NCBI GenBank assembly: GCA_963708625.1
Contig: CAVPSV010000004.1
Span: forward strand, 321,960 to 385,959
From: an uncultured Actinomycetota bacterium
GTDB lineage: Bacteria > Actinomycetota > Actinomycetes > Mycobacteriales > Jatrophihabitantaceae
Length of the DNA: 64,000 nucleotides
Direction of reading: 5' to 3'
The translations under genes were made by a program, and so were the position numbers. Of this stretch, positions 15,204 to 55,033 are shown piece by piece. The notes under the pieces were generated by a model. It had not been told where the DNA came from, searched no databases, and saw nothing but the letters and a program-made list of their open reading frames with translations. Numbering within the stretch: the stretch's first letter is position 1; each line of letters begins with the position of its first letter.

Positions 15204-15965
15204 CGCGGCCCCCCGATCCGAGTCAGGGCCGAGCCGGCGTGCACCAGCAGCAGATCCCCTGGATCGACGTCGCCGATCAGTGTGGTGTCGACGTGTTCGT
15301 CGCCCTGCGCGGTGCGCACCAGCGCGGCGCCCAACGGTCCGTCGCGGCCCACGATCACTTCCGCCGGGACGACCTTCGTCGCTGCAGGTGATGCAGACCT
15401 CGTCGGTGCAGTCGGAGTCACGCTCGACGAGCAATCCGGGATGCTCGAAACACACGTGCGTCAGCTCCCACAGCAGGTGATACATCAGTACGAAGCGGCC
15501 GGTCGCGGGCGCCAGCGGGTTGGCGTCGTCGATCCACAGCACCTGGTCGGCCGCGCCGGCCGGCGGGCGTTCGCCCGAGCCGATCCAGACGCTCAGCGCC
15601 CCCCAGGCGGGCGTGCGGCGCATCAGGTCCTGCACCGCCCGGTCGCCGGCACCGGCCACTGCGATGACGATGTCGCCAGGACGGACCGAGACTCGCGCCT
15701 GAGCGACGACGTCCCCCGAGGTGAGCGCGAATGCCGGCAGCGCCCGTTTGCCCACGATGACGGGGTGGACGAACTCGACGGCCATGTGGTGCGCGTGTGG
15801 CTCCCACTGCGGCGCGACGCACCACATGGTGGCGCCGGCGTGATAGCGGCGTGCGAGCGAGAGCGCGGCCGCGGCCAGGTCCTCGGCCAGGCCACGGTCC
15901 AGGATGTCCGGGGTGATGCCGGAAGAGACGTCCAGCTCGGGCGTCGTTACGAAATCGACGGTCAC
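15200..15965 (-). pseudogene. hydrogenase-associated protein with C-terminal HupF/HypC-like domain, frameshift near 15420-15450
   Basis: The N-terminal ~190 aa (MTVDFVTTPELDV...HVCFEHPGLL...DEVCITCSDEG) read through into the SIS gene. The real C-terminus is in another frame (15200..15421): AEVIVGRDGPLGAALVRTAQGDEHVDTTLIGDVDPGDLLLVHAGSAL, with the stop just before the SIS start. Confidence 0.45.
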
Positions 15966-18360
15966 GGTGCTACCCCCTGTTGGCGTGCATAGCCGACGGC
16001 ACCGATCACGGCTTGGCCGAGCGCGAGACCCCCGTCGTTGGGCGGGACGAGGCGGTGGGTCAGGACTCGCAGGCCGCTGCCCTCGAGGCGTCGGCGGCAG
16101 AGGTCCAGCAGCAGGACGTTCTGGAAGACGCCGCCGGTCAGCCCGACCAAATCTTGATCATGTGAATCGCATACCCGGATCGCGACCGCGGTAACCGCGT
16201 CGGCAACGGCTACGTGGAACCAGTGCGCAAGCGTGGCCGTGTCCACGCCCGCACGCAGGCCCGCCACCAGGCCGCGAACGACCGGTGCGTAGTCCAGCCG
16301 TCCGTCCTCGATCGCGAACGCCCACGGCGGCACGGCGCTGGCCGGGTCCGCGACGGCCGGGTCCGCGCCGGCGGCTGCACTCGCAGCCAAGATCTCGAGT
16401 TCGATCGCGGCCTGCGCCTCGTAGCCGATTCGCTGGCGCACGCCGAGGATCGAGGCGACGGCGTCGAAGAGCCTGCCCATGCTCGAGCACGGCACCGTCG
16501 CACGCCCGGACGTCAGCTGCGACCGGACCGCGGCGAGTTCGCGCGGCTCGCAGGCGGCAACCGGCGCCACGTCGTCATCCCACGCGACATCGCTGGCGGC
16601 GAGGTAGGCCAGCGCGGCTCGACAGGGGTTGCGCACCGCCGCGTCCCCACCGGGCAGATCCACGGTGCGCAGGTGGCCGACCCGCTCGTAGCTGGTCACG
16701 TCCGCGGACACCTGCAGGAACTCGCCACCCCAGATGGTGCCGTCGTCCCCGTAGCCGGTGCCGTCGAACGCGACGCCCAGGGCCGATACCCCGAGCAGGT
16801 TGTGTTCGGCCAGCAGGGACACCACATGTGCGTGATGGTGCTGGACGAGTCGCAGCTGCGGCTCGCCCGGCCGACCGGTGTGGCGCTGCGCCCACTCGCG
16901 GGTCAGGTACGCGGGGTGCGCGTCCACCGCGACGATCTCGGGAGCGAGGCGGTGCAGCGTGGTCAGCTGATCCACCGCGCGCTCGAAGGCGCGCAGCGTG
17001 TCGAGGCTGCCCATGTCCCCGACGTGCGCCGAGCAGAACGCGTTCGTCGCGTCCACGAGGCAGAAGGTGTTCTTCAGCTCGCCACCGACGGCAAGCGTCG
17101 GGGGCAGCGCGTGGCCCAATGGCACCGGCAACGGCGCCAAGCCACGCGAGCGGCGGATCGGCAACTCGCGGCCATCGAAGACACGCACCACGCTGTCGTC
17201 GCACGGCACGTGAATGCCACGGTCGTGGGTGAGTACGGCGTCGGCGAGCGAGGGCAATCGCCGCTGCGCGTCGATGTCGTCGAAGCACAGCGGCTCGTCG
17301 CTGACGTTCGCACTCGTCAGCACGAGCATGCCGGCGCCGGTGCGCCGGCGTCGGGCACCGGCGCGAGCAACAGATGGTGGATCGGGCTGTAGGCGAGCAT
17401 CACCCCGAGCAGCGGGTTGCCCGGCGCCACACTGTCCGCGACCGGCGCGTCCGGCCGGCGGCGGAGCAGGACTATCGGCCGGGCGCGGCTGGTCAGCACC
17501 TGAGCTTCGGCCTCGTCGATGACAGCGAGGCGGTGCGCGGTGGGCAGGTCACGCACAAGCAGCGCGAACGGCTTCTGGTCGCGCGACTTCCGCTCCCGCA
17601 GTCGTGCCACCGCAGCCGGGTCGTCCGCGCGGCAGGCGAGGTGATACCCACCGATACCCTTGACGGCGACGATCTGCCCGTCGGCCAGCGCGTGCTGAGC
17701 GTGGGCCAACGCGGAGTCGCCGACGGCTGCCGTCGCGCCGTCGCGCTCGAAACGAAGTACCGGCCCGCAGTTCGGGCAGGCGACGGGCTGGGCATGGAAG
17801 CGGCGATCGGCCGGATTCGCGTACTCGCGCGCGCAGTCGGCACACATGGCAAAGTCCGCCATGGTTGTGGCGGGCCGGTCGTAGGGCAGATCGCGAATGA
17901 TCGTCAGCCGCGGTCCGCAATCCGTGCAGGTGATGAAGGGATGGCGGTAACGGCGGTCGGTCGGGTCGAACAACTCGGCGAGGCAGTTGTCGCAGGTGGC
18001 CACGTCGGGCGGGATGAGCGTTCGCGCGCCCTCGGCCGCACGGCTGGCGACGATGCGGAACCCGCTGTCTTCGACCAGCGGTAGCGGCGTGCTGGTGACG
18101 GAGATGACGAACGCCATCGGCGGCGCATCGATGCGAACTCGGCGCTCGAACTCCGCCAGTAGCCCGGCCGGACCCTGCACCTCAGCGAAGACGGCCTCCG
18201 CGTCGTTGCCGACGAAGCCGCTGAGGCCTAGTTCGGTGGCCAACCGGTGGACGAATGGGCGGAAACCGACGCCCTGGACGACACCGGTTATCGAAAGCCG
18301 CGCCCGTTCTCGCGCTGCAGCATCCGGGCGGAAGGCGAGCGAGCGGGCCGTCGCGGTCAT
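15962..18360 (-). pseudogene. hypF: carbamoyltransferase HypF, one frameshift near 17320
   Basis: N-terminal part (17317..18360 frame): acylphosphatase VQGVGFRPFV, Zn fingers CDNCLAELFDP...CTDCGPR and CADCAREY...CPNCGP. C-terminal part (15962..17329 frame): YrdC/Kae1-like region ...VFQNVLLL.... Confidence 0.85.
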
Positions 18361-19828: not shown

Positions 19829-20494
19829 TCAGTCGGACGGGATCATCGACCGCAGGCCGTCCACATCGTCGATGATGATCTGCCGCCGTCCCAGCGAGAT
19901 GACACCGCGGCTCACCAGTCGCTGCAGCACCTGATTCACCGTCGGCCGGGCCGCGCCGGTCATCATCGCCAGATCACCCTGCGACAGCGGGATCACCGCG
20001 GCGCCCGGTGTGCCGCCGTAGATGTCGGCCAGGGCGATCAGCCGCCGGTAGACGCGGCGGTCCACGCCGAAGTACAGCGCCTCCAGCAGCTGCCGACTCA
20101 GATCCTCCACGCGCTGGGCGAGTGCGGCGACCACCAGCCCGTCGATCTCCGGGTGCGAGTTGCGCAGCGTCGCGAAGGCCGTGCCGGCCAGCGCCAACGT
20201 CTGGCCGGGGGTCAATGCCGCGACGGTGGCGCTGCGCCGCGGCGTCTGACCCGACTGCAGCAGCGCGAGCTCACCGAAGAAGTCGCCGCCGGAGAGCACG
20301 TTGACGGTCAGCCGGTCACCGTTGGCCGCGGTGACGTGCACCGCGAACAGGCCACTGTCGATCAGGTGCATGCTGTCGGCGGGATCACCCTCGTGAAACA
20401 CCACCTCGCCGCGCGCGAACGTGCGCCGGCGTGCAGAGCTCAGCACCTCTTCGCGCGCCTGCGCCGGCAGCGTGTCCAGCAGCGGCCACTGCAT
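19829..20494 (-). CDS. Crp/Fnr-family cNMP-binding transcriptional regulator
   Basis: cNMP-binding fold (FFGELALL...RSATVAALT) plus C-terminal HTH (SQGDLAMMTGAARPTVNQVLQRL). Its ATG overlaps the stop of the upstream cyclase gene (TGATG). Confidence 0.75.
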   Translation of the reverse strand: MQWPLLDTLPAQAREEVLSSARRRTFARGEVVFHEGDPADSMHLIDSGLFAVHVTAANGDRLTVNVLSGGDFFGELALLQSGQTPRRSATVAALTPGQTLALAGTAFATLRNSHPEIDGLVVAALAQRVEDLSRQLLEALYFGVDRRVYRRLIALADIYGGTPGAAVIPLSQGDLAMMTGAARPTVNQVLQRLVSRGVISLGRRQIIIDDVDGLRSMIPSD

Positions 20495-23400
20495 CAGCGC
20501 ACCCACATCTGGTCGAAGAACACGCCGAGCACCGAGCTGCGGGTGTAGTTGTGCACCCTCGGCGAGAGGACGTCCACCCACGACGGCGTCACCAGGCCCA
20601 CCCACGCGGCCTGATCGATGAGTTGGCGGTCCAGCTGTGCCCAGGTGGCGGCAGCCGCGGCCGGTGAACTCGCCTGCTCCTGTTCGGCTCGTGCGGTGAG
20701 GGCGTCCAATGCCGGATCGCAGAACTCGCTGGGGTTCAGGCTTGCATCCGAATTCGGCACGAACCCCGAGCACTCGAACTGGGGCACGATGAAGTCCTCC
20801 GGATTGGGCGGTTCGGCGACCCAACCCGCAAAAGATGCCTGGACTTTGTTGGCGGAATTGCCGATGTAGCTGAAGTAGTCGTCCTTGGGGTAGACGACCA
20901 GCTTCGCTCGATACCCGAGCTGGTCAAGCGCGCCGACGACGTCCTGCATACCCGCCGCGGTCCTGGGTCCGGTGACAACATCCACGGCCATGCCTTTGGT
21001 GTGCGACTGGTCGACCAGGCGCTCGGCCGTCGGGAAGTCAGGCGCGGACCAGGCGCCGGCCGTGCCGGGCCGAAGCGTGTACGGGCAGTACGGGCGATAT
21101 CCCGGGAAGTTGGGCGGCAGCAGTTGGCAGGTCGGAATCGCCGGGGTGAACCAGTCGTCGGCCACCGCCTGCCGGTCGATCGCGTACGCAAGTGCGCGGC
21201 GTACCCGCACATCGTTGAACGGCGCGATCCGGGTGTTGAGCGCGACGCCGTGCGCCGCCTCGGTCGGGGTCAGGTACAGCCGCACGCCGAAGCGAGCTTG
21301 CAGTTGCGCCAGTGGCGCGGCGCCGCGCGCGTCGGCCCAGTCCGCCGATCCCGCCGCAACGCGGTTCACCGCGTCCTTGGTGTCCGCGCCGTTCGCGTCG
21401 ACGTTCCACGTGATCGAATCGGGATATCCCGCCGGCTGGGCGGCCGGGGACCACTCGTGGAAGGAGGGGTTGCGGCTAAGGACGATCTGTTTGCCGTCGT
21501 CTCGGGTGATCGCGTACGGCCCAGTTGCGGGGATGGGCTTGGCGCCCTGGTCAGCCAGCGGGGTCGCCGCGGGTGTGGCCACGGCGGCAGCCAGCAGATC
21601 CAGGAAGTCGCCGCTCGGCCGGTTCAGCGTTATCGCGACGGTGTCGGCGCCGGCGTCCGCGGTGACGCCCGAGATCGTGCACCGCTGCGTGGTACACGCC
21701 GAGGCGCCGACGATTTCCTGCGGCAGGCCGGGCAGGCCGCTGGCCACGATCCGCTCCAGCCCACGTTGCACGTCGGCGACGCTCACCACCGCCCCGGTCG
21801 ACCAGCGCACGCTGCCGCGCAGCTGAAATGTGTAGGTGCGGCCGCCGTTCGTCGGCTCGGGAATCGACGTCGCCAGGTCGGGCACCAACTCGCTGCCCTC
21901 CGCCCCATTCGCGTGGCGGAAGCCGACGAGTGCGTCGAAGCTGTCGTTGATCAGCCACAGCGTCCACGGGGTGCCGAAGTAGTCCGGGTCGACCGAACCA
22001 GGGTCCTGCCCGTCCACCGTGATCGATCCGCCGACGTGCCGCGCGGGGTCGATGGTGGTGGTGACCCACAGTCGCCCGCCTGAACTCACCAACGCGGTCG
22101 GAGTGGCTCCGGTGGGCACGGTGCGCACCGGGCGGCTGGACTTGGTGTCGAACTCCCTCAGCGATCGGGATCCCTCGCTGGCGACCCAGAGCGCAGTGCC
22201 GAGGACCGCGATCTTCGTCGGTTCCTCGGCCACCGGCACCGTCTCGGCCACCGAACCGGTGCCGACGTCGATGCGGGTCACGGTTGCGTCCAGATTGTTG
22301 GTCACCCAGGCGCTACTGCCGGAGACCGCGACATCGCGCGGGTCGTTGCCGACATGCACCGTCTGGGTCACCGTGCCGCTCGCCGGGTCGATCACGCTGA
22401 CCGTGTTCGAGGTGGCGTTCACGATCCAGACCGAGTGCGCGACCGCAATGCCGTCCGGGCCGTCGCCGACGCCGATGGTGGCCGTCACCGTGTCGTCGCC
22501 GGGATCGATGCGCGAGACGGTGCCGTCGGCGGTGTTGGTGACCCACACCGATCCGTCGCCCACCGCCAAGCCGGCCGGTGACGTACCGACGACGACGGTC
22601 TGGACCCCATACGTCGTGGGGTCGATGCGCGAGACGGTGCCGGAGCCACTGTTCGCCACCCACACCGAGTCGAAGCCGAAGGCCACTGCCGACGGTGCCT
22701 GGCCGACGCTCACCGTGTTCGTGACGCGTTTGCTCCCGGTGTCGATCCGGCTGATCGTGTTGGCGCCGGTATTGGCGGTCCAGATCGCGCCGGGCGCCGC
22801 GGCCGCTGCCGTGGGTGACAGGTCGACGCCGAGTTGAGCCACGATGTGGCCGTTCTTCGGGTCGATGACACCGACCGCATTCTCGGCCACGCGGTGCAGG
22901 TCGTGCGACGTTCCGGACGTCAGCACCAGTCCGACGGCGGTGCCGGCCACGGCAATGCCGACCGCGGCACCGATCGCGACTGCCCGGCGGCCGCGCCACC
23001 ACCGGGGTCGTCGGTCGCCGGTGCGAGGGAGCGGACGAGCGGCGGCGATGAGTGCGCTCATCTGTCGCGCCGGGTCGTGTCCGTCCGGCACGACCCGCAC
23101 CATGCGGACCGCGTCGCGCAGGCCCTTCACATCCACGGTGCCGCCCGCGACGTAGCGGATGCCGTCGATCGTGCGAGCCAGGTGCGTCACCTCGTGGCTG
23201 GCCAGCGTCTCGCCCGCCTTGGCCAGGCCGCACAACCGGGCCGCGAGGTTGAGCGCGCCGCCGCGGTATCCGTCCGCGCTGCGAACCGCCTCGCCGACGT
23301 CGACGCCGATACCGACAGTCAGCGGCAGGGAGGGATCAGTCACCGTTTCCGTGACGAACCGCTGTTGCAGCGCCACCGCGGCGCGCAGCGACAACCTGGG

Positions 23401-23676
23401 CGAGGCGAACACGCACATGGCCTCGTCGCCACGCAGTTCGAACACCGATCCGCTGAATTGCGCCACTACGTCGCGGACCATGTCGGCGAACCTGGCGGTG
23501 AGCCGGGCGGCCGCCTCGTCGCCGTTGTTCTGGGTGAATGTCGTGTAACCGCGGATATCGGCAAAGAGAAATGTCAGGAGTTCAGACGATTCCGCTCCCG
23601 GTTTCCCGGTTTCGGGTTCGTTCGGCGGGCCGTTGGCGGCGCCGTCCGGCGACATGGCGCCGAGTATGGACCACAT
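20494..23676 (-). CDS. class III adenylate/guanylate cyclase - TM - YVTN/NHL beta-propeller - family-5 solute-binding-protein domain fusion
   Basis: N-terminus LLTFLFADIRGYTTF...RGDEAMCVFASP (cyclase catalytic core). One TM helix (AVAIGAAVGIAVAGTAVGLVL). About 7 repeats of the type VSVGxxPxxxAxxxxxxWVxNxxxxTVSRID. C-terminal SBP_bac_5-like region (PGYRPYCPYTLRPG...). Confidence 0.75.
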   Translation of the reverse strand: MWSILGAMSPDGAANGPPNEPETGKPGAESSELLTFLFADIRGYTTFTQNNGDEAAARLTARFADMVRDVVAQFSGSVFELRGDEAMCVFASPRLSLRAAVALQQRFVTETVTDPSLPLTVGIGVDVGEAVRSADGYRGGALNLAARLCGLAKAGETLASHEVTHLARTIDGIRYVAGGTVDVKGLRDAVRMVRVVPDGHDPARQMSALIAAARPLPRTGDRRPRWWRGRRAVAIGAAVGIAVAGTAVGLVLTSGTSHDLHRVAENAVGVIDPKNGHIVAQLGVDLSPTAAAAAPGAIWTANTGANTISRIDTGSKRVTNTVSVGQAPSAVAFGFDSVWVANSGSGTVSRIDPTTYGVQTVVVGTSPAGLAVGDGSVWVTNTADGTVSRIDPGDDTVTATIGVGDGPDGIAVAHSVWIVNATSNTVSVIDPASGTVTQTVHVGNDPRDVAVSGSSAWVTNNLDATVTRIDVGTGSVAETVPVAEEPTKIAVLGTALWVASEGSRSLREFDTKSSRPVRTVPTGATPTALVSSGGRLWVTTTIDPARHVGGSITVDGQDPGSVDPDYFGTPWTLWLINDSFDALVGFRHANGAEGSELVPDLATSIPEPTNGGRTYTFQLRGSVRWSTGAVVSVADVQRGLERIVASGLPGLPQEIVGASACTTQRCTISGVTADAGADTVAITLNRPSGDFLDLLAAAVATPAATPLADQGAKPIPATGPYAITRDDGKQIVLSRNPSFHEWSPAAQPAGYPDSITWNVDANGADTKDAVNRVAAGSADWADARGAAPLAQLQARFGVRLYLTPTEAAHGVALNTRIAPFNDVRVRRALAYAIDRQAVADDWFTPAIPTCQLLPPNFPGYRPYCPYTLRPGTAGAWSAPDFPTAERLVDQSHTKGMAVDVVTGPRTAAGMQDVVGALDQLGYRAKLVVYPKDDYFSYIGNSANKVQASFAGWVAEPPNPEDFIVPQFECSGFVPNSDASLNPSEFCDPALDALTARAEQEQASSPAAAAATWAQLDRQLIDQAAWVGLVTPSWVDVLSPRVHNYTRSSVLGVFFDQMWVR

Positions 23677-23771
23677 TTCTCACGCGTGCCCGCCCGTGCC
23701 CGAGGACGTGGCCCGAGAAGGTGCCCGAGGACCGACGCGGCACGACGCTCAAACCGGACGTCCAGGCTCGA

Positions 23772-29014: not shown

Positions 29015-29344
29015 CTATTCTGCGAGGCCGAGAAACACGATGAGCGCACGATCGAGCCTGATCAGATCGGCGTCCGGGAGCCGGCCGAGCTGATCCCGCA
29101 GATTCGCCCGCGGCATGGTGGTGATCTTGTCGACCATGATCATGCTGGGCTGCTCGATCCCGGTGGCGGGAGTGGGCTGCACCGAGATCCGAGTCAGCGG
29201 GGCCTCGACCGGATTCGTCGTGAGCGGGCAGACGGTGACCGACGTGGTGGCATCGAAGCGGTCATCCTGAACGATGACCACGGGCCTGGGCTTGCCGGTG
29301 TAGGCACCTCGCGCGGCGGCGACGCGAATATCGCCGCGGCTCAC
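29015..29344 (-). CDS. mazF: type II toxin, MazF/PemK family
   Basis: GKPRPVVIVQDDRF...VTVCPLTTN is MazF-like. 4-nt overlap with the upstream antitoxin gene. Confidence 0.65.
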   Translation of the reverse strand: MSRGDIRVAAARGAYTGKPRPVVIVQDDRFDATTSVTVCPLTTNPVEAPLTRISVQPTPATGIEQPSMIMVDKITTMPRANLRDQLGRLPDADLIRLDRALIVFLGLAE

Positions 29345-29565
29345 TCGGCCGAGGTCCCCTCATCGGACCAGTCGACGGAAATAGCGTCCACGAATTCCTG
29401 GTCGGCAGATTCGTACTCGCTGGCCGCAATTGCCGCCGACTGCCGGTGCGCCTCGGCCACAAATTCCGGCGCACGCACATCAGGCACCCAGATCTGGACC
29501 GGTCGCAGCCCCAACGCACGCAGCCGCTGCCGATGTTCTCGGACTCGTTCCCGCGTGGTCGCCAT
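29341..29565 (-). CDS. antitoxin partner of MazF (RHH/MazE-like)
   Basis: MATTRERVREHRQRLRALGLRPVQIWVPD. Position and overlap with mazF. The start could instead be at 29637. Confidence 0.5.
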   Translation of the reverse strand: MATTRERVREHRQRLRALGLRPVQIWVPDVRAPEFVAEAHRQSAAIAASEYESADQEFVDAISVDWSDEGTSAE

Positions 29566-34142: not shown

Positions 34143-34376
34143 ATGACCACTTGGGGCGGGTACCGACGTCGCGCGGCACCAGGGCTGCTCAGTGCGGTGC
34201 TCGTGATCTGGCTGATCATCGGGGTTGTCGCCACCGCCCAGCGACACTACTTCTCCGGTTCGAATGAGACCTGCGCGAAGGCCGGCACCATCGCCGTGAC
34301 GATCCTCGCCGGCCCGCTGAACTATGTGGGCGTCAACCCGAAGATCACCTGCCACATCCCGCAGCCGAGCAAGTAG
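34143..34376 (+). CDS. small membrane protein
   Basis: 77 aa, one TM (LLSAVLVIWLIIGVVATA). Confidence 0.3.
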   Translation: MTTWGGYRRRAAPGLLSAVLVIWLIIGVVATAQRHYFSGSNETCAKAGTIAVTILAGPLNYVGVNPKITCHIPQPSK

Positions 34377-34484
34377 CGACCTGCTTCGCCCGTCGACGTT
34401 TACCGTGCGCGCTCGGCGGGCACATACGGGCTGTGACGGTCATGCAGTGGACCCGCCGCCAAGCGAGCGGGAAAGGAGTAACTG

Positions 34485-34709
34485 ATGCCGGGACGATCAG
34501 CGAACGTGAAGAATGAGAAGCAGTACGAAGCTCTCAAGGACAAGGGCATGTCCAAGCAGCGCGCCGCCCGCATCGCCAACTCACCGAGCGCCTCGAGCAA
34601 CGGCGGCAAGCGCAGCGGATCCGGCAGCAACGCCAATCAGGGCGGCACAACGGCGCAACACAAGGCGGCCGGGCGCAAGGGTGGCAAAGCCGCTGCGCGC
34701 AACTCCTGA
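34485..34709 (+). CDS. small basic Gly/Lys-rich protein (stress-protein-like)
   Basis: GGA-rich RBS. MPGRSANVKNEKQYEALKDKGMSKQRAARIA...GRKGGKAAARNS. Confidence 0.35.
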   Translation: MPGRSANVKNEKQYEALKDKGMSKQRAARIANSPSASSNGGKRSGSGSNANQGGTTAQHKAAGRKGGKAAARNS

Positions 34710-34732
34710 CGCGCGTTTACCCGGGCTGTCCA

Positions 34733-34944
34733 TGAAGCGCGGCGAGCACCCACAGCGAACGCCGTTCTACGGCGCGTTGCTGATGATCGCGGGGATGCTG
34801 ATCGGTGTCGCGGTCACTGCATGGTCGCATCCGGCCGCCGCCGTGCGGGCGACGTTTTTGGTGTTCGCATTGATCGTGGCGATCATCGGCTTCGGCATGA
34901 CGATGCGGGACAACTCGCGATTTCGTCGCCGCGACGGCAGCTAA
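34733..34944 (+). CDS. small membrane protein (2 TM)
   Basis: MKRGEHPQRTPFYGALLMIAGMLIGVAVTAWS...FLVFALIVAIIGFGMT. Confidence 0.3.
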
Positions 34945-34953
34945 CCGCGCACG

Positions 34954-35613
34954 TTACGCATCCGTGACGGCAGCGAGATCGCGAACGAGACCGTCGTAAA
35001 CCTCGCGGCGCTTGGCGCCCGCCCGCAGGACCGCGGAGGGGTGGATGGTCGCGAACGCGGCGCGGGCCGGTGCCGCTCGCTGCGCCAGGGGTCCTTCGCG
35101 CGGCGGCCATGGCAGGGGTTGCCCCCGGTGCGAAGTGAGGGTGAATGCGGGCCCGAACAGCGCGGCCGTTGCCACCGCACCGAGCGCGACGAGCAGGTCC
35201 GGGCGGACGATGTCGAGTTCCGCGGCGAGCCACGGACGGCACGCGTTGATGTGCCGAGCGGCGGGCTTGTCGTGGATCCGCCGCTTGCCGCGTTCGGCAG
35301 GTTTCCAGCGGAAGTGCTTCACGGCGTTGGTCAGATAGACCTCTGCCCGGTCGATGCCGGCATCGCTCAGCGCCGAGTCCAGCAGCCTGCCCGCCGGACC
35401 GACGAAGGGCTCGCCGCGCCGGTCTTCAACGTCACCGGGCTGTTCGCCGACGAGCATGATCCGCGCAGTGCGCGGCCCGGCGCCGAAGACGGTCTGGGTG
35501 GCAGACGCGAACAGCTCGCAGCCCTGGCAGTCGGCGGCAGCGGCGGCCAGCGAGCGCAGGCTATGCGTGCGCGGAACGAACTCCTCGGCGCCGCCCGCAG
35601 ATTTCACATCCAA
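34954..35613 (-). CDS. udgX: family-4 uracil-DNA glycosylase superfamily protein of the UdgX type
   Basis: 4Fe-4S Cys pattern (CQGCEL...), motif A GEQPG, and the UdgX-specific insertion HFRWKPAERGKRRIHDKP (KRRIH loop). Confidence 0.65.
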   Translation of the reverse strand: MDVKSAGGAEEFVPRTHSLRSLAAAAADCQGCELFASATQTVFGAGPRTARIMLVGEQPGDVEDRRGEPFVGPAGRLLDSALSDAGIDRAEVYLTNAVKHFRWKPAERGKRRIHDKPAARHINACRPWLAAELDIVRPDLLVALGAVATAALFGPAFTLTSHRGQPLPWPPREGPLAQRAAPARAAFATIHPSAVLRAGAKRREVYDGLVRDLAAVTDA

Positions 35614-35736
35614 CTGATCCCCGCCCCGCGTTGAGAACTAACGACGCTCCCAGGCGATCGAGTTCGCACCGTGGCGGCTCGCCACCATGTACCTCTTTCG
35701 CGCGTCCTGACTGCGAGCATCGCATCGCTGGCCGTT

Positions 35737-35770
35737 GCGCCTAGCCGCGCCTAGCCGCGCCTAGCCGCGC
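35737..35770. repeat. 10-bp tandem repeat (ctagccgcgc) x3 spanning the GCS2 stop codon
   Basis: gcgc ctagccgcgc ctagccgcgc ctagccgcgc acgg, read directly. Each unit carries CTAG (a TAG stop on both strands). Confidence 0.7.
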
Positions 35771-36933
35771 ACGGTGAGTGCATCCAGAACCGCGTCGAAA
35801 CCCCCGGTCCGGTGGGCGGCGCGCTGCTCGTCCGCGCCCGTCCCGCGCTCGCGTAGCCGGCGCAATTCGTGCCGGACCCGCTCGACGTCGCCACTGCCGG
35901 CGAGGGAGTCTGCGACGTGGCTGAGCAACGTCTCGACGCACTCCCACGCCGGCCGCAACTGAGGCCGCTGAGCCGGCTGGTCGGCAACGTCCACCAACTT
36001 GCCGGCCATCCCCCAACGCGCGGCGCGCCAAGCGCTGGCCCGCAGAGCTTCGATGCGTTCAGCCGACCGGGACACACCGTCGCGCCACGCACGTGCTGCC
36101 GTGTCGACGAGCGCGCGGCCCAGCGCAGCGATCAAGATTGCGGTGCCCACATCGTGGTTCACGTCGGCGACCCGCAGTTCCACCGTCGGATAGTTGGCCG
36201 AGAGGCGAATGTCGAAGTAGAGCATCCCGTCATCCAGCGCGGCACCGGTGTCGAGCAGCGCCTGCTGTGTTCGGCGATAGGTGTCCAGGTCACCGAACGG
36301 CGCGGTCGGCCCGGCGGTCGGCCACTGCCCCCACAACACGCTGCGGTAGCTCGCGTAGTCGGTGTCCTCGCCGTGGTGAAACGGCGAGTTGGCGCTCAAC
36401 GCGGTGAGCAACGGCAGCCAGCGCTGCACCCGATCGATGACCGCAACGCCCTCCTCGGGCGAGTCGACCGAAACGTGGACGTGCATGCCACACGTCAGCT
36501 GCTGACGCGCAACGAGACCGAAGGCCTCCGTCATCCGCCGGTAGCGCTGATCGGCGGTGGTGGCCGGATGCCGCGCGCTCGGATGGGTGCCGCTCGCGAT
36601 CAGCCGTGCGCCGGTGTCCGCCGCGGCGGTGACGAACTCGCGACGTAGCCGTCGCAGGTCTGCCTCCAGCGCGTCGAGGTCGGACGCCGGCGACGAGCCG
36701 AGTTCGGCTTGGGCCTGCTTCAACTCGTGCTCGAACTGTCCGTCCGGGTCGCGTCCGGCCGCATCCCGAACCACCTCGTCGCCGTCGTCGGCAAGCTCGC
36801 CCCGGCCGCGAACGAGCAGAAACTCCTCCTCGACGCCGACAGTGCGGCCGTCCCACCGGTTTGGGGAATGTTTTGGCCGTATAGGGGCCACAACCTTCCC
36901 CAAACCGGTGATTGGTTCATCGCGCTCGCTCAT
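35761..36933 (-). CDS. carboxylate-amine ligase, glutamate-cysteine ligase family 2 (YbdK/GCS2)
   Basis: VGVEEEFLLV N-terminal motif and overall GCS2 architecture, 390 aa. Confidence 0.8.
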   Translation of the reverse strand: MSERDEPITGLGKVVAPIRPKHSPNRWDGRTVGVEEEFLLVRGRGELADDGDEVVRDAAGRDPDGQFEHELKQAQAELGSSPASDLDALEADLRRLRREFVTAAADTGARLIASGTHPSARHPATTADQRYRRMTEAFGLVARQQLTCGMHVHVSVDSPEEGVAVIDRVQRWLPLLTALSANSPFHHGEDTDYASYRSVLWGQWPTAGPTAPFGDLDTYRRTQQALLDTGAALDDGMLYFDIRLSANYPTVELRVADVNHDVGTAILIAALGRALVDTAARAWRDGVSRSAERIEALRASAWRAARWGMAGKLVDVADQPAQRPQLRPAWECVETLLSHVADSLAGSGDVERVRHELRRLRERGTGADEQRAAHRTGGFDAVLDALTVRG

Positions 36934-36950
36934 CAGGTGTTCACCGGCCG

Positions 36951-37533
36951 CTAGTCGACGATGCCTTCGCGCTGGGCGACCGAGCCCGGCACTGTGGTCC
37001 AGACATCCATCAGGAAATCGTCCTCGACGTGCCGCGCCAACCGATACATGCCGACACCAAGCGCGGCATGGACCACGTCCGCGGACTGCGGATAGTCCGG
37101 TGCGCTATGGCGCCAATGACATGCCACGACGACCGCGTCGCGCCGAAGCAGTCCGTGCACCGCCGACCGCAACGCGTCGAGGTCGGCAACGTAGTAGCCG
37201 ACCTCGGACAGCACGACGAGATCGAAGGTCCCGGGCGGCAGGTCGTCCGGTAGCGATCCCTCGCACACCGTGACGCCCGGAAAGTCGGCCGCGTGTTGTC
37301 GAGTGAGCTCAACGGCCCGCGGCACCACGTCCATGGCGAGCACCTCGTCGCAGCGCTCGGCAAGCTGCCGGGTGACCAGACCGAGGGCGCAGCCCGGCTC
37401 GAAGGCCCGCTCGAACCGCTCCCGCGGCAGGGCCGCCATCAGCAGCGCGAGCTTGCGCCGCTCGTAGAACCCCCGCGCCAGACCCCACGGATCGTCGCTG
37501 GCGGCATAGAGATCGTCGAAGTAGCCGGGTCGC
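36951..37533 (-). CDS. class I SAM-dependent methyltransferase (NodS-like)
   Basis: GTG start overlapping the stop of the PIG-L gene (cTGAccGTG). Motif I EPGCALGLVTRQL. 194 aa. Confidence 0.6.
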
Positions 37534-37537
37534 ACGG

Positions 37538-38308
37538 TCAGGTCCCGGCCGGAGTGATGACCAAGAAGCACTCGAAATCGCGGGCGAAATAGGCCAGCGA
37601 GTCCGGGCCGACGACCGCCTCGTCGCCAGCATCCGCGGACAGCGGCTGGATCTGGCTCGGAAAGCACGCGATCGCCGCCTGTTTCCGTTCGCGCCGTTCG
37701 GCGCCTAGCGTCAATCGGCGGGTAGCCGCGGCCTCGGGATCGAGTTCGGCGAGTTCCTGGCGCGCGGCCCAGTGCCAGGCCCAGATCGGAAACTCCAGCA
37801 GCTCGATGCCAGGCTCCGCGGCGACGACAGCCCGTGCGGCCCGCGCACATGCCTCGTGATCGGGATGACGATCGTGTGCCCACGGCGCGAGCAGCACCGT
37901 GTCGCCCGAGCAAGCCCGCCGCAGGGCCGTGCACAGTTCGCCGGCGTGTGCCGCGAGCTCGCCGTCGGGCAAGCCGAGGAACTCCAGCGTGGCCTGGGGC
38001 GCCAGCGTGGCCATCGCGTCGGCGACCTCGTTCTTGCGTAGCGCGGCCAGGCGAGCAGGCGAATGCGTGCGCGATCGCGGATGCGATCCCGCTCCGTCGC
38101 TGGCCACGATGACGTGCACGTCCAGGCCGGTGTCGGCGGCGAGCCCGATCAGGCCGGCAGCGCCGAGTGTCTCGTCGTCGGGGTGGGCCGACAACACAAC
38201 CAGCCGCGTCCCGGTGAGCGTCTCCAGTTCAGGAGCCGCTCGCAGCCACGCGCACTCCTGCCAGGCCCGCTCACTGGTACCCGGCAGCTGGCCGTCGAAC
38301 GTGCTCAC
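37538..38308 (-). CDS. PIG-L/LmbE-family N-acetylglucosaminyl deacetylase
   Basis: VVLSAHPDDETLGAAG...HRDHEA is the zinc-binding pattern of the MshB/BshB family. Confidence 0.75.
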   Translation of the reverse strand: MSTFDGQLPGTSERAWQECAWLRAAPELETLTGTRLVVLSAHPDDETLGAAGLIGLAADTGLDVHVIVASDGAGSHPRSRTHSPARLAALRKNEVADAMATLAPQATLEFLGLPDGELAAHAGELCTALRRACSGDTVLLAPWAHDRHPDHEACARAARAVVAAEPGIELLEFPIWAWHWAARQELAELDPEAAATRRLTLGAERRERKQAAIACFPSQIQPLSADAGDEAVVGPDSLAYFARDFECFLVITPAGT

Positions 38309-39292
38309 GCCTCAGCAGCCAACAGGCGTGCGCCGAGCGCGGCCAGGTCTCGCTCGGCGTGATGCTGCCGGACGTAGAGCTCGAGATCGGCGACCCGCCG
38401 CACGTGCACCGGGTCGAAGCCCAGCGGCCTGGGCCCGAGTGCATGTGCGACGTGCCGCAGCGTCAGCTCCACCGCGTCGGCAACCACGGCGCGCACCCGC
38501 AGGGCCAGTAGTGCAGCGTCGGATACATCCGCGGCATCGATCGCGGTTGCCGCCGCGGCCAGTACGGTTCGCGCCCCGTGCAGGGCAGCGTCGACGGCGC
38601 CGAGGTGCATCTCGCCCAGGCTGCCGCCACGGCTGCCACCGGCCACCCCGTCGCGCAGCGTGGCGGCCAGTCCCGCTGCTCCGCCCAGCCAGCACGCCGC
38701 AACGCCGAGACCACCCCAGGCGAAACCCGGACGGATGAGGTACCACTCGGGCGCACCGACCGGCGTCGCAGCCACCGCGTCGAAGTGGACGGGCACGGTC
38801 GCGACGGTGCGCAGCCCGCGGGCCACCCATGCCTGAGTCGCCTCCGCATGCACCCCGCCTGCACGCAGATCCACCGCGAACAGGCGGCGGCCGTTCTCGG
38901 CGCGAGCGGTCACCAGGCCGTGATCCAGCGACCCGCCGAGCGAGCACCAGGGCTTGGTGCCGGTCACCGTCCAACCCTGCTCGGACTCCTTCGCCTCGAG
39001 TTGCACATCGGGCGCCTCCGCGGCGAAGACGCCCCAACTGCCGGGTTTCGGGTCGAGACCGGCCTCGGCAAGGATGGCGAGCGCGTCGGCGTGGGCTTCG
39101 AGCACCCGCGCCACAGTCAGGTCCACTTCGGCGACGGCAGCCAACAGCGACCAGCGCAGCGCGGTTCGGCCGCGCCCCGGTTCGGGCAGCCGATGACCGA
39201 ACTCGACGGCGACATCGATCGCGGCGACGGCGTCGTCGCTGGCACCGCGCGCGGCGGACAGCAGCGACTCGGCCCACTCCACGATCGCCATG
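38305..39292 (-). CDS. acyl-CoA dehydrogenase-like protein (short form)
   Basis: MAIVEWAESLL...GWTVTGTKPWCSLGGSLDHGLVTA...; ACAD middle and C-terminal domains. ATGA overlap with the PIG-L gene. Starts 2 nt after the Rieske stop. Confidence 0.55.
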
Positions 39293-39293
39293 C

Positions 39294-40195
39294 CTAGACC
39301 GGGTTCGATCGCAGTGCACGCGCCTCTTCGGGGCGGCGCACCTGGACCCGCTCGCCGACGATGCGGGCTTCGAAGCTTGGCTGTGGCCGGGTGGCCGGAC
39401 CGCGCACCACGACGCCGGTGCTGAGATCGAAGATGCTGTGGTGCCACGGGCAGACGATGCAGTCGTTCTGGAGCTCGGCCGTCGTGCAGCGGCCCACCGC
39501 GGTGGGTGCAGCGATCGGCCAGCGCGACCAGCCCGGTCTCCAGACGCACGACCAGCACCGCGGTTTCCCCAGCCGCGCCGTGCAACCGGGCGCCCACCGC
39601 GGCCACCTCCGATGCCGTGCCGATGTCGGCCCACTCGGCATCCATGTGCTGGAACGCGGTGGTGTCGACGCCGACCCCGAGGGCGTAGGTGAGATGGCCG
39701 CCCAGCCACCCTCCGACGGAAAGGACGCCCGAACCGAGCAGGGCCAGCGCTACCCCGCGCGCATGACGTCCCCGACCGCGCGCCGACCAGCTACCGGCAT
39801 AGCATCCGATCGCGGTCGCGTTCGTCAGCCGCATGAACGAGTCCGACACGGCGCTCGGCGCCGCCGGTGTCGAGCCAATCGGACCAGCCGGTGACTGCCG
39901 TCGGTGCCGCGGTCAGCAGTCCGAATCCCACCAGCCGGCGGGCACTGCGCCGTGCTGCTCGGCCACCCACGATGTCGAGCAGACCCGCCGAGGCCCACGC
40001 ACCCATCGGTACCGCCACGATCGCCGGGTGTACCGCGTGGCCGATCGGCGTGCCGGAGGCGAGATCGCGCGCGCGCCCGGTGCGCACGCTGTCGGGCACC
40101 ACGGCGGCGATCCGGTCGGCGATCGCATCGAGGAACGACGCGCGTTCGATCGCGTGCGTGATGCGGTCAGCGCGGCGTGGTCTACGGTGCGGCAC
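39294..40195 (-). pseudogene. membrane-anchored (DUF2231-like) Rieske [2Fe-2S] protein, 2 frameshifts
   Basis: TM/DUF2231 part in frame of 39791..40195. Box I CTHRGGPLHDG in frame of 38305..39849. Box II CPWHHSIFDLSTG in frame of 39294..39641. Confidence 0.55.
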
Positions 40196-40291
40196 GCTCG
40201 ACTCCTACCCGCGGCGGCCCGGGCTCACACAATGCGGCCCGGCGGTGCGCAGGCGTCGGGGCCGCTGCCGCGTACGGCGTCGTGGCGGCGG

Positions 40292-41080
40292 TCAGCCCTC
40301 GCTGGTCGCGGCCTGTCCGTACTCGACGCGGGTCGCGATGTCGCGCAGGTGGCCGGCGAAGCCGATCGAGGTTCGGCCGGCGCGGCGCGCCGAGGTACAC
40401 ACCGCAACATCCATTGCCCACGTCACGGGGATACCGGCCGCCTGCGCGCGCCGGATGAGATCGACGTCTTCCTCGTGCGGTACGGCTCGGAACCCGTCCA
40501 GGGCCAGATAGGTGTCGGCGCGAATGCCGAGGTTCGCGCCGTGGATGTGGCCGTGGCCGTCCCCGGCCAGGCCGGCCTCGTACTGCTGCCGGTACACGTC
40601 CTCGACGGCCGGTTGCCAGCACGTCCAGTCCTGCACGTCGACGGTGCCGGCGACGATCACGGCGCCGGCTCGAGCGTGCGCGGTGTGGCCGGCGATCCAG
40701 TTGGTCGGGACGAGCGAGTCGGCATCGGTGGTGGCGATCCAGATCGAGGCCGGGTCCACTGGATCCACCGCGCCGAACTCGTCAAGCAGGTGCTGGACGC
40801 CTTCTCGGCGGGCGCCGCCGACCGTGGCGGCAGCAGAGGTCATGCACCGCGAGGGCAGCGAAAGGCTGTCGAGCATGCCCGCGACAACCGCCTCGGACTC
40901 GTCGGTGCAGCTGTCCAGGACCACAACCGTGAGCACGGGAAGCGTCGCGGAGGCGACGGCCGCCGAGAGCGCGCGCAAGCAGCCGGGAAGTGCCAACTCC
41001 TCGTTGCGGGCCGGGACCACGATCCCCACCCGCTCGATGTCCACGCGCGCCGCAGTCATCTCCGCAGGCTCACTCACCAT
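40292..41080 (-). CDS. family-2 glycosyltransferase
   Basis: GIVVPARNEE...VVVLDSCTDES...TTDADS is a GT-A fold DxD region. Confidence 0.6.
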   Translation of the reverse strand: MVSEPAEMTAARVDIERVGIVVPARNEELALPGCLRALSAAVASATLPVLTVVVLDSCTDESEAVVAGMLDSLSLPSRCMTSAAATVGGARREGVQHLLDEFGAVDPVDPASIWIATTDADSLVPTNWIAGHTAHARAGAVIVAGTVDVQDWTCWQPAVEDVYRQQYEAGLAGDGHGHIHGANLGIRADTYLALDGFRAVPHEEDVDLIRRAQAAGIPVTWAMDVAVCTSARRAGRTSIGFAGHLRDIATRVEYGQAATSEG

Positions 41081-41083
41081 GGA

Positions 41084-41335
41084 TCACTGCTCGGCTGCCA
41101 CGCAATGCGCGAGGCTGCTCGGCCGCATGAGTTCCACCCGCCCGTTCGCAAACTGAACCTCGACCTCGCCGGCGGGCGAGATGCCGGCCACCTCGCCGCG
41201 AGTCCCGCGCGCAACCCGAGGCCGGAACAGGCCGACCGCGTAGAGCGCAACGACACAATCGCCGACGCTGAAGGCATCGGGCCGGGGTTCGACGTCGGGC
41301 ATCACGAGCAATATGTGCCCGTAGGTGTCGTCCAA
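41084..41335 (-). CDS. small hypothetical protein (83 aa)
   Basis: ORF only. 4-nt spacing to the GT2 gene. Confidence 0.25.
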   Translation of the reverse strand: MDDTYGHILLVMPDVEPRPDAFSVGDCVVALYAVGLFRPRVARGTRGEVAGISPAGEVEVQFANGRVELMRPSSLAHCVAAEQ

Positions 41336-41419
41336 CTATCCATCGGGGAACGGATGATCGGTTTCCGTGCCGCAACGGGCGGGCAGGGCGGCGGGATCAG
41401 CAGCCGCCCCGGGCCAGGA

Positions 41420-42427
41420 TCAGTCGTAGTGCCGCTCGGTGTTCACCCATTGATCAATGAGCTCCCACTGGCGCTCGAGCCAGGTGCGGATGGCTTGCTC
41501 CTCGCGCGGAACGTCTGCCGCGGGGTGCAGCCACACCCGGATTCGCATGGGTCGAAGGTGCAGCGGCAGCGCTCGCCAGATCTGCCCGGGGTTCACCAGC
41601 CTGTCCAGTCCCGCGTGCGCGACGACGAGCACATCGGTGTCGTTGCGCGCGGACAACGCTGCCACCGTGCCGCCGGGCCGGGGTGGCAGCACGTTGGTGC
41701 GAGCGCGGACGCGATCTGCTTCTCGCCGGCGGCCGGCTCGCAGTAGCCGCACCACGGACCGGCGGTGCCGGCGCGGGGTCCAGTTGCCGCCTTCGGGGAA
41801 GAGCAAGAGGGCGTCGCTCGGCTCCAATTGGCGGCACAGTTCGGCGACGGCCGCGGCGCGGTCCTCGCCCGCGCCCGACGTCGAGGGCAGGAATTCGCAG
41901 TCGAGGCGGGTCAGCACGACGTCCAAGCCGGGGTCCCATTGCAACGCCTGCTTGAGGATGACCCGCGGGTTGCGGTCCAACCGGGTCGTCAGCAGGTGGA
42001 CGAGGGTGAACGAGTCGCCCGGTCCGGCATGGCGGGCCAGCACCACCAGTGGTCGGTCGTGCTGGGCCAGCGGTTGGCTGCCGACGAACTGCACGTCGTA
42101 GCCGAGCAGCGCGTGCGCGGCAGCCAGTAGTCGGGTCAGGGTACGAGCCAGCAGGGCGGAATGCCGCTCCCGCCACTGCAGCTCGTCGCGATCAGCGTTG
42201 GGATAGCGCAGCCACAGCCAGGTGCAGCCGAGCAGCAACCGTAGATCCAGGTACAGGTACACAGCGCCCAGCAGCGCGACGCGCAGCACGCGGCGCCTTC
42301 GGGTGAACGGCGCGAGCACCGCAGCTACCAGCGCCGTCGCGAGGAGCAGCAGGCCGAGCGCGATCGCCAGCGGGATCCAGAGTGGGTCAATGGCCAGGCG
42401 GCGGATCGCTCGGGGCGGCACCTTCAC
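41420..42427 (-). CDS. PlsC-family lysophospholipid acyltransferase with N-terminal TM segments
   Basis: HxxxxD motif (LARHAGPGDS) and downstream PEGG-like region (LFPEGGNWTP). Confidence 0.6.
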   Translation of the reverse strand: MKVPPRAIRRLAIDPLWIPLAIALGLLLLATALVAAVLAPFTRRRRVLRVALLGAVYLYLDLRLLLGCTWLWLRYPNADRDELQWRERHSALLARTLTRLLAAAHALLGYDVQFVGSQPLAQHDRPLVVLARHAGPGDSFTLVHLLTTRLDRNPRVILKQALQWDPGLDVVLTRLDCEFLPSTSGAGEDRAAAVAELCRQLEPSDALLLFPEGGNWTPRRHRRSVVRLLRAGRRREADRVRARTNVLPPRPGGTVAALSARNDTDVLVVAHAGLDRLVNPGQIWRALPLHLRPMRIRVWLHPAADVPREEQAIRTWLERQWELIDQWVNTERHYD

Positions 42428-43262
42428 CTAGCTGTCGACCGTCTCGACGCCATCCAGGTAGCGCATGGAAGCCCGGTAGGCGGCGTCGATCCGTGCGGTC
42501 ACCCCGCGGGTGCTTCGGTAGCGCACATTGACCGACGGTGTCGCGCCACCGCCGGTCGGCAACACGTGCACCTCGACACCGGCGGGCAACCGGCTCATCT
42601 CTTCCACGAACCGGTGCCGGCGCGCGATCTCGAATGCCACCAGGGCAACCTCCCACGGCCACCTCGGCGGGCGCAGCGGCTGTTCGATCCGACCCACGTG
42701 CAGGACGAAGATCCGCTCTGCGCCCAACTCGACGGCTCGCCCGACCGGGATGGAGTGCACCAGCCCGCCGTCGAAGAAGTGTTCTTCCCCCACTCGCTGC
42801 GGCCGGAAACAGGCCAGGCACCGCACAGGAAGCAACGACGGCATCCGCGAGCGAGCCCTCGCTGAACCAATGTGCAGCGGAACGCTCGATGCTCGCGGCC
42901 ACGCATTCGAAATGGATCGGGAGCTCCTCGAACCGTTGCACCGGCAATCGCTGCCGAATCAATTGCCGCAACGGCTCGGCCGACTGCAGGTGCGTGCGAT
43001 GCCTGGCCAGCCGGGCAGCTTGGGACATGACCGAGTCGGCGAAGACGCCCGCTTCGGAGAACGAGGACCACAATTCACGAAGCACCTGCACCGACGCGGT
43101 GGACAGGCCCGTTGCGATCATTGCTCCGTTGACCGCGCCGACGCTCGCGCCGACCACCAGATCCGGACGAACGTCGCGCTCGGCCAACGCCGCCAACATG
43201 CCCACCTGCGCCGAACCGAGAACGCCGCCGCCACCGAGCACCAGGGCGGTTCGGCGAGCCAT
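42428..43262 (-). pseudogene. patatin-like phospholipase, frameshift near 42850
   Basis: GGGVLGSAQVGML...GASVGAVNGA (Gly-rich region and GxSxG Ser) in the 42387..43262 frame. C-terminal DGG motif region EHFFDGGLVHSIPV in the 42428..42844 frame. Confidence 0.7.
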
Positions 43263-43354
43263 CCTCGCAGGATATCGACGCGGTGCCCGCGGGGTAGCCG
43301 ATCGCTGACCCGCACCGTTTGACCCGGCGCCCGGTGGGTAAGCCGTTTGGCATG

Positions 43355-43915
43355 GGCAATGAACTCAACGGAAAGAAGATCGCGTTTCTGGTCGCGAACG
43401 AGGGCGTCGAAGAGGTGGAACTCACCTCGCCATGGGATGCCGTGCAGCGCGCCGGCGGTGAGCCGGTCCTGATAGCTCCGAAGACCGGCGACGTGCAGAC
43501 GTTCAACCACCTGGACAAGAGCGACGTCTATCAAGCCACCGTGCAAACCGGCGAACTCGACGTGGCGGCCTACGACGGTGTGGTCCTGCCGGGTGGCGTC
43601 GCCAATCCCGACCAGCTACGCACCGACGACGCCGCGGTGTCATTCCTGCGGCAGTGGACGCGGGCCGGCAAGCCGATCGCCGCGATCTGCCACGGACCGT
43701 GGACGCTCGTCGAGGCAGATGCCGTCCGAGGCAAGACCTTGACCAGCTGGCCGAGCCTGAAGACCGACATCCGCAACGCCGGTGGTGAGTGGGTGGACGA
43801 GCAGGTGTCTCGCTGCGAGGCCGGCGACTACACCCTCATCACCAGCCGCAAACCCGATGATCTCGAGGAATTCGACAAGGCGCTCGTGGATCTGTTCGGG
43901 CGCCGCGTCGACTAG
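43355..43915 (+). CDS. DJ-1/PfpI-family protein
   Basis: KIAFLVANEGVEEVEL...AICHGPW (nucleophile Cys elbow). Confidence 0.75.
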   Translation, partial: GNELNGKKIAFLVANEGVEEVELTSPWDAVQRAGGEPVLIAPKTGDVQTFNHLDKSDVYQATVQTGELDVAAYDGVVLPGGVANPDQLRTDDAAVSFLRQWTRAGKPIAAICHGPWTLVEADAVRGKTLTSWPSLKTDIRNAGGEWVDEQVSRCEAGDYTLITSRKPDDLEEFDKALVDLFGRRVD

Positions 43916-52060: not shown

Positions 52061-52804
52061 TCAATCCTTCGTGCCGGGCCAGCTCCTGCGCGTGATCAGT
52101 CCGCGGTCGACCAGATCCAGGAACGCGTTGATCAGCGTTTCCTGAGCGGCAGGCGCTTCGCCGGCCAACGGACCGAGAAGTAGCCCCGACAGGCCGTGTA
52201 CGGCGGCCCACGCGTTGGTGGCGGCGATGTCGCGGTCCGCTTCGTCCAAGACCCCCGCGTCGAGCATGCCATCGAGTGCCTTGCCGAGAATTTCGTACGG
52301 ACCAAGACCTGAGTCGCCGACACCCCGCGGTCCATCAGCCTTGTCAGCGGCATTGCCGGCCCCGCGAGGCGGCGCATCGCCGACCTGCGCGGCCCCCTTG
52401 CGCGGCGCGAACGCAGTGGCGAACAGCCCAGGTTCGGCTAGCGCGAAGTGGATGTAACCACGTCCCACCGCGTCCAGCCTCGCGATGGCGTCGGACCCCG
52501 CCTGCCCGGTGGGCTGGCATTTCGCCAGCTCAGCTTCCATCGAGCGTGCCAACGCGGACAGGGCGTCGGCGGCCACCGCCTGGACCAGATCGGGTAGCGA
52601 GCCAAAATGCCGGTACGCCGCGTTCGCCGAGACGCCGACTCGCCGGGCCGCTTCGCGCAGCACGATTGCGGCCGGTCCGCCCTCACGGGCGAGCTCGATG
52701 CCCGCCTGCACCAGGGCGTGACGCAGGTTGCCGTGGTGATACGGCCCGAGCCGACTCGCGTCCGATGTCGTCACGACACGCAATGTTGACAGCGTGAACT
52801 TCAT
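52061..52804 (-). CDS. TetR-family transcriptional regulator
   Basis: GNLRHALVQAGIELAREGGPAAIVLREAARRVGVSANAAYRHFGS is a TetR_N HTH. Divergent from mmpL. Confidence 0.8.
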   Translation of the reverse strand: MKFTLSTLRVVTTSDASRLGPYHHGNLRHALVQAGIELAREGGPAAIVLREAARRVGVSANAAYRHFGSLPDLVQAVAADALSALARSMEAELAKCQPTGQAGSDAIARLDAVGRGYIHFALAEPGLFATAFAPRKGAAQVGDAPPRGAGNAADKADGPRGVGDSGLGPYEILGKALDGMLDAGVLDEADRDIAATNAWAAVHGLSGLLLGPLAGEAPAAQETLINAFLDLVDRGLITRRSWPGTKD

Positions 52805-52828
52805 GTGGCAAGTTCACGCTGTCAACAT
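52783..52828. promoter_or_regulatory. perfect 19-bp inverted repeat (ATGTTGACAGCGTGAACTT-N8-AAGTTCACGCTGTCAACAT), candidate TetR operator
   Basis: Read directly from the sequence. Overlaps the tetR start codon and lies 18 nt upstream of the mmpL GTG/RBS. Confidence 0.6.
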
Positions 52829-52846
52829 CGAGCGAGGGAGTTCGCC

Positions 52847-54994: not shown

Positions 54995-55033
54995 CGCACG
55001 GCCCGACCCACCCGCTGACCAGGAGCTGCCGAC

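Follow-up and report, generated by a model that had tools for sequence, protein, structure and literature searches.

The DNA analysed here is a stretch of 64,000 nucleotides (the window) with a GC content of 68.8%. The original prediction had placed a UdgX-type uracil-DNA-binding protein at 34954-35613 and given no strand. The ORF list returned exactly these coordinates and put the reading frame on the minus strand. The two sequence elements that had been quoted, GEQPG (here as VGEQPGD) and the insertion HFRWKPAERGKRRIHDKP, were both found letter for letter in the 219-residue translation. The features of the gene, called udgX below, are listed here with residue numbers of the window protein; Msm marks the numbering of UdgX from Mycobacterium smegmatis (MsmUdgX, MSMEG_0265), and codons were re-read by hand.

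34954-35613, minus: udgX coding sequence, 219 codons plus a TAA stop, TTG start (ORF list, TIGR03914, matches to PDB chains, dN/dS)
35614-35696, minus: putative own promoter and 5' leader of udgX, 83 bp, which stays with udgX in contig L084 though the upstream gene differs there
35518-35529, minus: C29-x-x-C32, first two predicted [4Fe-4S] ligand positions, aligned to Msm C24/C27
35434-35448, minus: motif A, G56-E-Q-P-G60 (GGC GAA CAG CCC GGT, GEQPG), aligned to Msm 51-55
35314-35316, minus: H100 in NAVKH, predicted His replacing the third Fe-S Cys of family 4, aligned to Msm H95
35272-35286, minus: R-loop signature K110-R-R-I-H114 (AAG CGG CGG ATC CAC, KRRIH), in gapless alignment to Msm K105RRIH109
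35239-35241, minus: C125 in ACRPW, fourth predicted Fe-S ligand position, aligned to Msm C120
35044-35121, minus: 26-residue loop QPLPWPPREGPLAQRAAPARAAFATI from the HRG strand to motif B, seen as a gap in the global alignment to MsmUdgX
35023-35043, minus: motif B, H191-P-S-A-V-L-R197 (CAC CCC TCC GCG GTC CTG CGG, HPSAVLR), DNA-intercalation and substrate-binding loop, fitting the consensus HPS(S/A)(L/V)(L/V)R

The frame had GC contents of 0.76, 0.56 and 0.82 at the three codon positions (GC1/GC2/GC3), as is typical for a real gene in such a GC-rich window. We accepted the start at 35613 because a relative with 88% identity (P0003) has an ATG at the position homologous to the TTG, because the JGI gene caller picked the same TTG in a near-identical contig and because the frame stays open for just eight codons further upstream. 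Nei-Gojobori comparisons gave a dN/dS of 0.14 against L084 (dS 0.23), of 0.25 against L082 (dS 0.27) and of 0.20 against L001 (dS 1.03). With ratios of 0.14-0.25 against three relatives, udgX is clearly under purifying selection and selectively maintained. A pseudogene or relic was ruled out by the intact frame together with these ratios. A profile built from alignment A1 found no second UDG-like ORF in the 64-kb window. An exact-sequence lookup returned no database record for the window protein; the nearest record, P0001, was identical over 218 aligned codons and had one Gly fewer. Over 8.7 kb, contig L081 (JGI metagenome 3300036815) was 99.5% identical to the window and had its genes in the same order. 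Compared with this contig, codons 7-8 of udgX contain a 3-bp GGC indel (35589-35591; Gly-Gly versus Gly) in the disordered N-terminal tail. A short repeat with a 10-bp period lies at 35526-35552, where the N-terminal coding sequence is rich in Ala.

On the same strand, upstream of udgX, lie genes for a GCS2-type carboxylate-amine ligase (35761-36933), a NodS-type methyltransferase and a PIG-L deacetylase, as well as an ORF with acyl-CoA-dehydrogenase-like and Rieske domains. Downstream and convergent are genes for a 70-aa membrane protein (34732-34944), a DUF7218 protein (34485-34709), a 77-aa ORF, a HAD hydrolase and a hemerythrin. When the ten neighbouring proteins were compared by tblastn with 80 related loci, no conserved partner of udgX was found, and the window neighbours were shared just with the four close relatives L001, L010, L022 and L038. 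In the region from 20 to 44 kb, a scan of the main ORFs turned up no radical-SAM gene; the rest of the window was covered by sampling. PADLOC gave no match for UdgX and seven other nearby proteins, and a PHROG scan produced one weak match (2e-7), to a family of unknown function.

Since L084, a contig from the same metagenome as L081, has a divergent DJ-1 gene directly upstream and yet retains the 83 bp in front of udgX, we infer that udgX constitutes an independent transcription unit. Neither a sigma-70-like promoter nor an intrinsic terminator was detected in 34300-36100, where the sigma-70 consensus may not suit the organism.

The same contig departs from the window in a further respect: it joins position 43459, inside the DJ-1/PfpI gene, to position 35696 and lacks the intervening 7.76-kb block (window 35697-43458, compared with L084:758-1937). 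Identity to the window shifts from 97% to 90.6% at this junction, and either a genuine indel or recombination event or a chimeric assembly could account for it. The Pfam-scanned ORFs of the missing block encode the GCS2 ligase, the NodS methyltransferase, PIG-L, an acyl-CoA-dehydrogenase-like/Rieske protein, a GT2 glycosyltransferase and an acyltransferase. The related strains L082, L083 and L084 also vary in the small genes that follow udgX (34465-34954). The gene for the 70-aa membrane protein is missing from L084 and present in L082 and L083, which carry a DUF1360 gene at the place of the window's DUF7218 gene. Across the GCS2 stop codon, at 35737-35770, runs a perfect 10-bp tandem repeat, GCGCCTAGCC, in 3.4 copies, each unit of which holds a TAG on the minus strand. 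Its copy number is polymorphic between near-identical strains, since the 99.5% identical L081 has one extra copy, and one variant base.

The minus-strand genes at 35761-42427 form a cluster for a GCS2 ligase, a NodS-like methyltransferase, a PIG-L deacetylase, an acyl-CoA-dehydrogenase-like protein, a Rieske/DUF2231 protein, a GT2 glycosyltransferase and an acyltransferase, and could serve to synthesise or modify a glycolipid or thiol-type metabolite. Part of this gene order recurs in Jatrophihabitans MAGs (L010, L022). The window comes from an uncultured, soil-type actinobacterium, and partial synteny points to the Jatrophihabitans-like actinobacteria. In L081, a patatin gene comes after the corresponding cluster, and the window ORF at 38305-39912 is called there as two genes. 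Otherwise the window resembles an ordinary actinobacterial chromosome, with a [NiFe]-hydrogenase large-subunit C-terminus (5052-6269), the maturation genes HypD (11964-13046) and HypF (15962-17548), WS/DGAT, an MMPL transporter gene (52790-54994) and an ORF with DUF222 and HNH endonuclease domains (61574-63049). Such DUF222-HNH ORFs are typical of actinobacterial repeat-family genes. The MMPL gene adjoins an ORF in which a SAM-methyltransferase domain is fused to a class-V aminotransferase domain (55019-56947). On the minus strand we further noted an unusual 1061-aa ORF (20494-23679) combining an N-terminal adenylate/guanylate cyclase, beta-propeller repeats (YNCE, DUF6923) and a family-5 solute-binding protein domain, and a gene for a MazF/PemK-type toxin (29015-29359; E = 6e-22), which had no PADLOC match. 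Scans of the whole window (1-64000) for tRNA genes and for Rfam families at gathering score came back empty and so did not help to place the organism.

The product of udgX matched the Pfam UDG profile (PF03167) over its full length (E = 3e-33). The top one of three NCBIfam matches was TIGR03914, "UdgX family uracil-DNA binding protein", with 238.4 bits (E = 7e-71, residues 14-216) and a curated trusted cutoff of 189.95 bits; the archaeal type-4 equivalog stayed below its cutoff (118.7 versus 250 bits). In a phmmer search of the PDB, the best 24 distinct sequences were all M. smegmatis UdgX or point mutants of it (E = 6e-63 to 2e-60), and the classical family-4 UDGs (1UI0, 1L9G, 1VK2, 4ZBX) followed at 5e-27 or worse. 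The matches to the Pfam and NCBIfam models and to the solved UdgX chains lie far beyond chance. An AlphaFold2 model computed from an alignment of 36 sequences reached a mean pLDDT of 86.3 and a pTM of 0.86, with moderate confidence in the loop region (block means 74-79). Foldseek placed this model next to MsmUdgX, which made up all of the top 30 PDB matches (TM 0.78-0.89, E 1e-24 to 1e-20); family-4 UDGs ranked after these entries at an E-value of about 1e-12. Global alignment to MsmUdgX gave 55% identity, and KRRIH paired with residues 105-109 of MSMEG_0265 without a gap. Given this gapless alignment and a predicted fold closest to UdgX structures, the signature is neither absent nor misplaced. 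The proposed UdgX-type identity was thus borne out by a TIGR03914 score above cutoff, the complete set of UdgX motifs and the nearest fold. Judged from sequence and model, the window protein belongs almost certainly to the UdgX family.

UdgX was defined by Aroli et al. 2023 through motif A (51-GEQPG-55), the R-loop (105-KRRIH-109) and motif B (178-HPS(S/A)(L/V)(L/V)R-184) (PMC10359453). Its Q53 stands where family 4 has A or G, the enzymes of that family having GE(A/G)PG and Pro/Asn at the positions of R107 and H109 (PMC10359453). After uracil excision, H109, activated by E52 as its partner in a catalytic dyad, bonds to the sugar C1'; replacement of H109 by S, G, A, Q, C or K turns the protein into a turnover glycosylase (PMC10359453). 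Q53 serves as loop anchor and R184 as backbone binder, and relatives from M. smegmatis, M. avium, Rhodococcus imtechensis and Bradyrhizobium diazoefficiens have been characterised (PMC10359453). Sang et al. 2015 reported that the UdgX-DNA complex withstands SDS, heat and urea, that the protein has a 415 nm Fe-S signature with one Fe-S Cys replaced by His, and that cells need RecA when UdgX complexes build up (PMC4787834).

All of these positions could be traced in the window protein. MsmUdgX residues C24/C27 correspond to C29/C32, E52-Q53-P54-G55 to E57-Q58-P59-G60, D56 to D61, D59 to D64, N91 to N96, K94/H95 to K99/H100, K105-R-R-I-H109 to K110-R-R-I-H114, C120 to C125, H178-P-S to H191-P-S and R184 to R197, and every mapped residue was identical. 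The residues reported as functional (E57, Q58, N96, R112, H114, H191 and R197) were therefore all kept, E57 being the equivalent of the catalytic-dyad partner and Q58 that of the UdgX-specific residue (PMC10359453). The predicted ligands C29, C32, H100 and C125 reproduce the Cys/Cys/His/Cys pattern of UdgX, and H100 would, by alignment, be the specific site of the published Cys-to-His replacement. The window protein and MsmUdgX were compared with 80 genome loci. Throughout these 82 sequences, the four Fe-S positions, G56, E57, G60, D64, N96, K99, R111, H114, H191-P-S and R197 were invariant (82/82). Q58 was kept in 81 of the 82; the first Lys of KRRIH was variable (57/82).

MsmUdgX is likewise a standalone single-domain protein (PDB 6AJO, 6AIL, 6IO9, 6IOD, 8IIE and others), of about 209 aa compared with 219 aa in the window. 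Motif A and KRRIH are identical in both, motif B is of the same type, the Cys/Cys/His/Cys pattern is the same and so is the predicted fold (TM 0.83-0.89). The window protein differs by an N-terminal tail that is five residues longer, by Asp115 directly after the catalytic His, where MsmUdgX has Lys110 in the part of the loop near its anchor Q53, and by a longer loop in front of motif B with a conserved Trp-Pro-Pro. The gene neighbourhood, too, is different and non-conserved. The pre-motif-B loop counts 26 residues in the window protein versus 18 in MsmUdgX, and its length ranges from 14 to 41 residues across the family. A 26-residue loop with the conserved Trp is usual in the clade (103 of 114 close clusters, 42 of 75 genome loci), and the subclade that carries it is abundant in soil actinobacterial metagenomes. 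The long loop is a trait of this clade on a variable surface element, no peculiarity of the window gene.

A conventional family-4 UDG of the UdgA type would excise uracil with turnover in ordinary base-excision repair, without crosslinking. The window protein did pass the family-4 subfamily model TIGR00758 (133.5 bits, cutoff 125.3), and it shares with the family-4 enzymes of Thermus thermophilus (1UI0), Thermotoga maritima (1L9G/1VK2) and Sulfolobus tokodaii (4ZBX) the UDG alpha/beta fold, the Fe-S cluster scaffold with its ligand positions and motif B, at about 30% identity. These enzymes, however, have no KRRIH insertion, carry A or G for the Gln of motif A and use four Cys ligands; they are true turnover enzymes, whereas the window protein is a predicted crosslinker. 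In place of GE(A/G)PG with Pro/Asn at Msm 107/109, it has GEQPG with Q58 and, in the R-loop, R112 and H114. The UdgX model scored 105 bits above the family-4 model, and the fold match to UdgX was better by about 12 orders of magnitude in E-value. A UdgA-type enzyme at this locus is highly improbable on these grounds. Another reading would see in the gene a component of a two-domain or radical-SAM-linked putative DNA repair system. Among the best 150 cluster representatives, 33 were at least 400 aa long with the UdgX-like domain at the C-terminus, and about 39 N-terminal positions of the TIGR03914 profile were left unmatched by the window protein. In the homologues of some 450-530 aa, the C-terminal domain shares 47-59% identity with the window protein and mostly has an x-R-[IL]-H signature, but the first Arg of KRRIH is often replaced (KQRIH, KLRLH and similar) and an N-terminal domain is fused that the window protein does not have. 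Such a domain would not fit into the mere eight open codons that precede the start. As neither a radical-SAM family among the main ORFs at 20-44 kb nor a neighbour conserved over the 80 related loci speaks for a system of this kind, we consider this reading hardly credible.

The protein might also have kept the UdgX fold and diverged in activity, acting on another lesion or DNA context or binding without crosslinking, as a consequence of the Trp-Pro-Pro loop and the Lys-to-Asp change. The eight additional loop residues relative to MsmUdgX and the invariance of W169, P170, P171 and G174 among the close relatives of alignment A1 could hint in this direction. The pocket and the catalytic residues, however, are all unchanged, the model superposes on UdgX with a TM of up to 0.89, and the variation in loop length suggests a surface element tolerant to change. 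We therefore regard a diverged activity as very unlikely. Equally unlikely are two broader proposals: that the long-loop clade would have an altered substrate range or DNA-context preference, or that standalone UdgX in such bacteria would serve outside repair, sensing or trapping uracil-rich foreign DNA or the damage done by deaminase toxins.

The reading that we prefer is that the gene very probably encodes a standalone UdgX orthologue, a [4Fe-4S] offshoot of family 4 that would crosslink via His114. Its chemistry and its cellular role we infer by homology with M. smegmatis UdgX. A uracil would be flipped out of single- or double-stranded DNA into the protein pocket and its N-glycosidic bond cleaved. 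His114 of K110RRIH114, the predicted nucleophile, would then be activated by Glu57 of motif A and attack C1' of the abasic sugar in place of water. The protein would stay covalently and irreversibly bound to the abasic site, so that each molecule would act in one event. Gln58 would serve as the anchor of the loop, Arg197 together with motif B would grip the DNA backbone, and the iron-sulfur cluster would be held by Cys29, Cys32, His100 and Cys125. Since all residues found important by mutagenesis are unchanged, we would expect with high confidence that the purified protein crosslinks to uracil-DNA through His114. Clearing the resulting DNA-protein crosslink would require repair of the recombination or SOS type, as has been suggested for mycobacteria. 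A tentative cellular role put forward in the literature is the marking of uracils for RecA-dependent processing, and the gene neighbourhood in the window offers no further hint.

The distribution of the family has been called "sporadic" (PMC10776899), and the original prediction went further in describing UdgX homologues as phylogenetically restricted. A genome scan confirmed relatives in at least 467 species genomes. The hosts among the genome matches listed included Mycobacterium, Micromonosporaceae, Frankiales, Pseudonocardiales and Kribbella and, in addition, Pirellulaceae and Phycisphaerales (Planctomycetota) and Dormibacterota; the best species-representative match among those listed was an Actinomycetota MAG with 73% identity. 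In a collection clustered at 90% identity, at least 8000 clusters matched. The best 120 of them were all at least 62% identical, and 119 of these 120 carried GEQPG together with RRxH. An exhaustive search of 1.84 billion representatives (50% identity) returned 888 clusters at E <= 1e-30, and 12,887 at E <= 1e-10, a number that presumably includes ordinary family-4 UDGs. With at least 467 species genomes and 888 clusters, the family is patchy or sporadic but large, and "phylogenetically restricted" was an overstatement.

With every sequence hallmark of UdgX in place, udgX is a routine new member of its family and no discovery. Close relatives in NCBI are already named "UdgX family uracil-DNA binding protein", and current annotation pipelines would name the gene automatically, which leaves it little discovery value. 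UdgX is in use as a reagent for genome uracil mapping and covalent DNA-protein coupling. As a divergent, naturally selected orthologue with a long loop, the window protein could be a useful reagent variant, of modest practical value. For the family as a whole, the data presented here correct the idea of a phylogenetically narrow UdgX.
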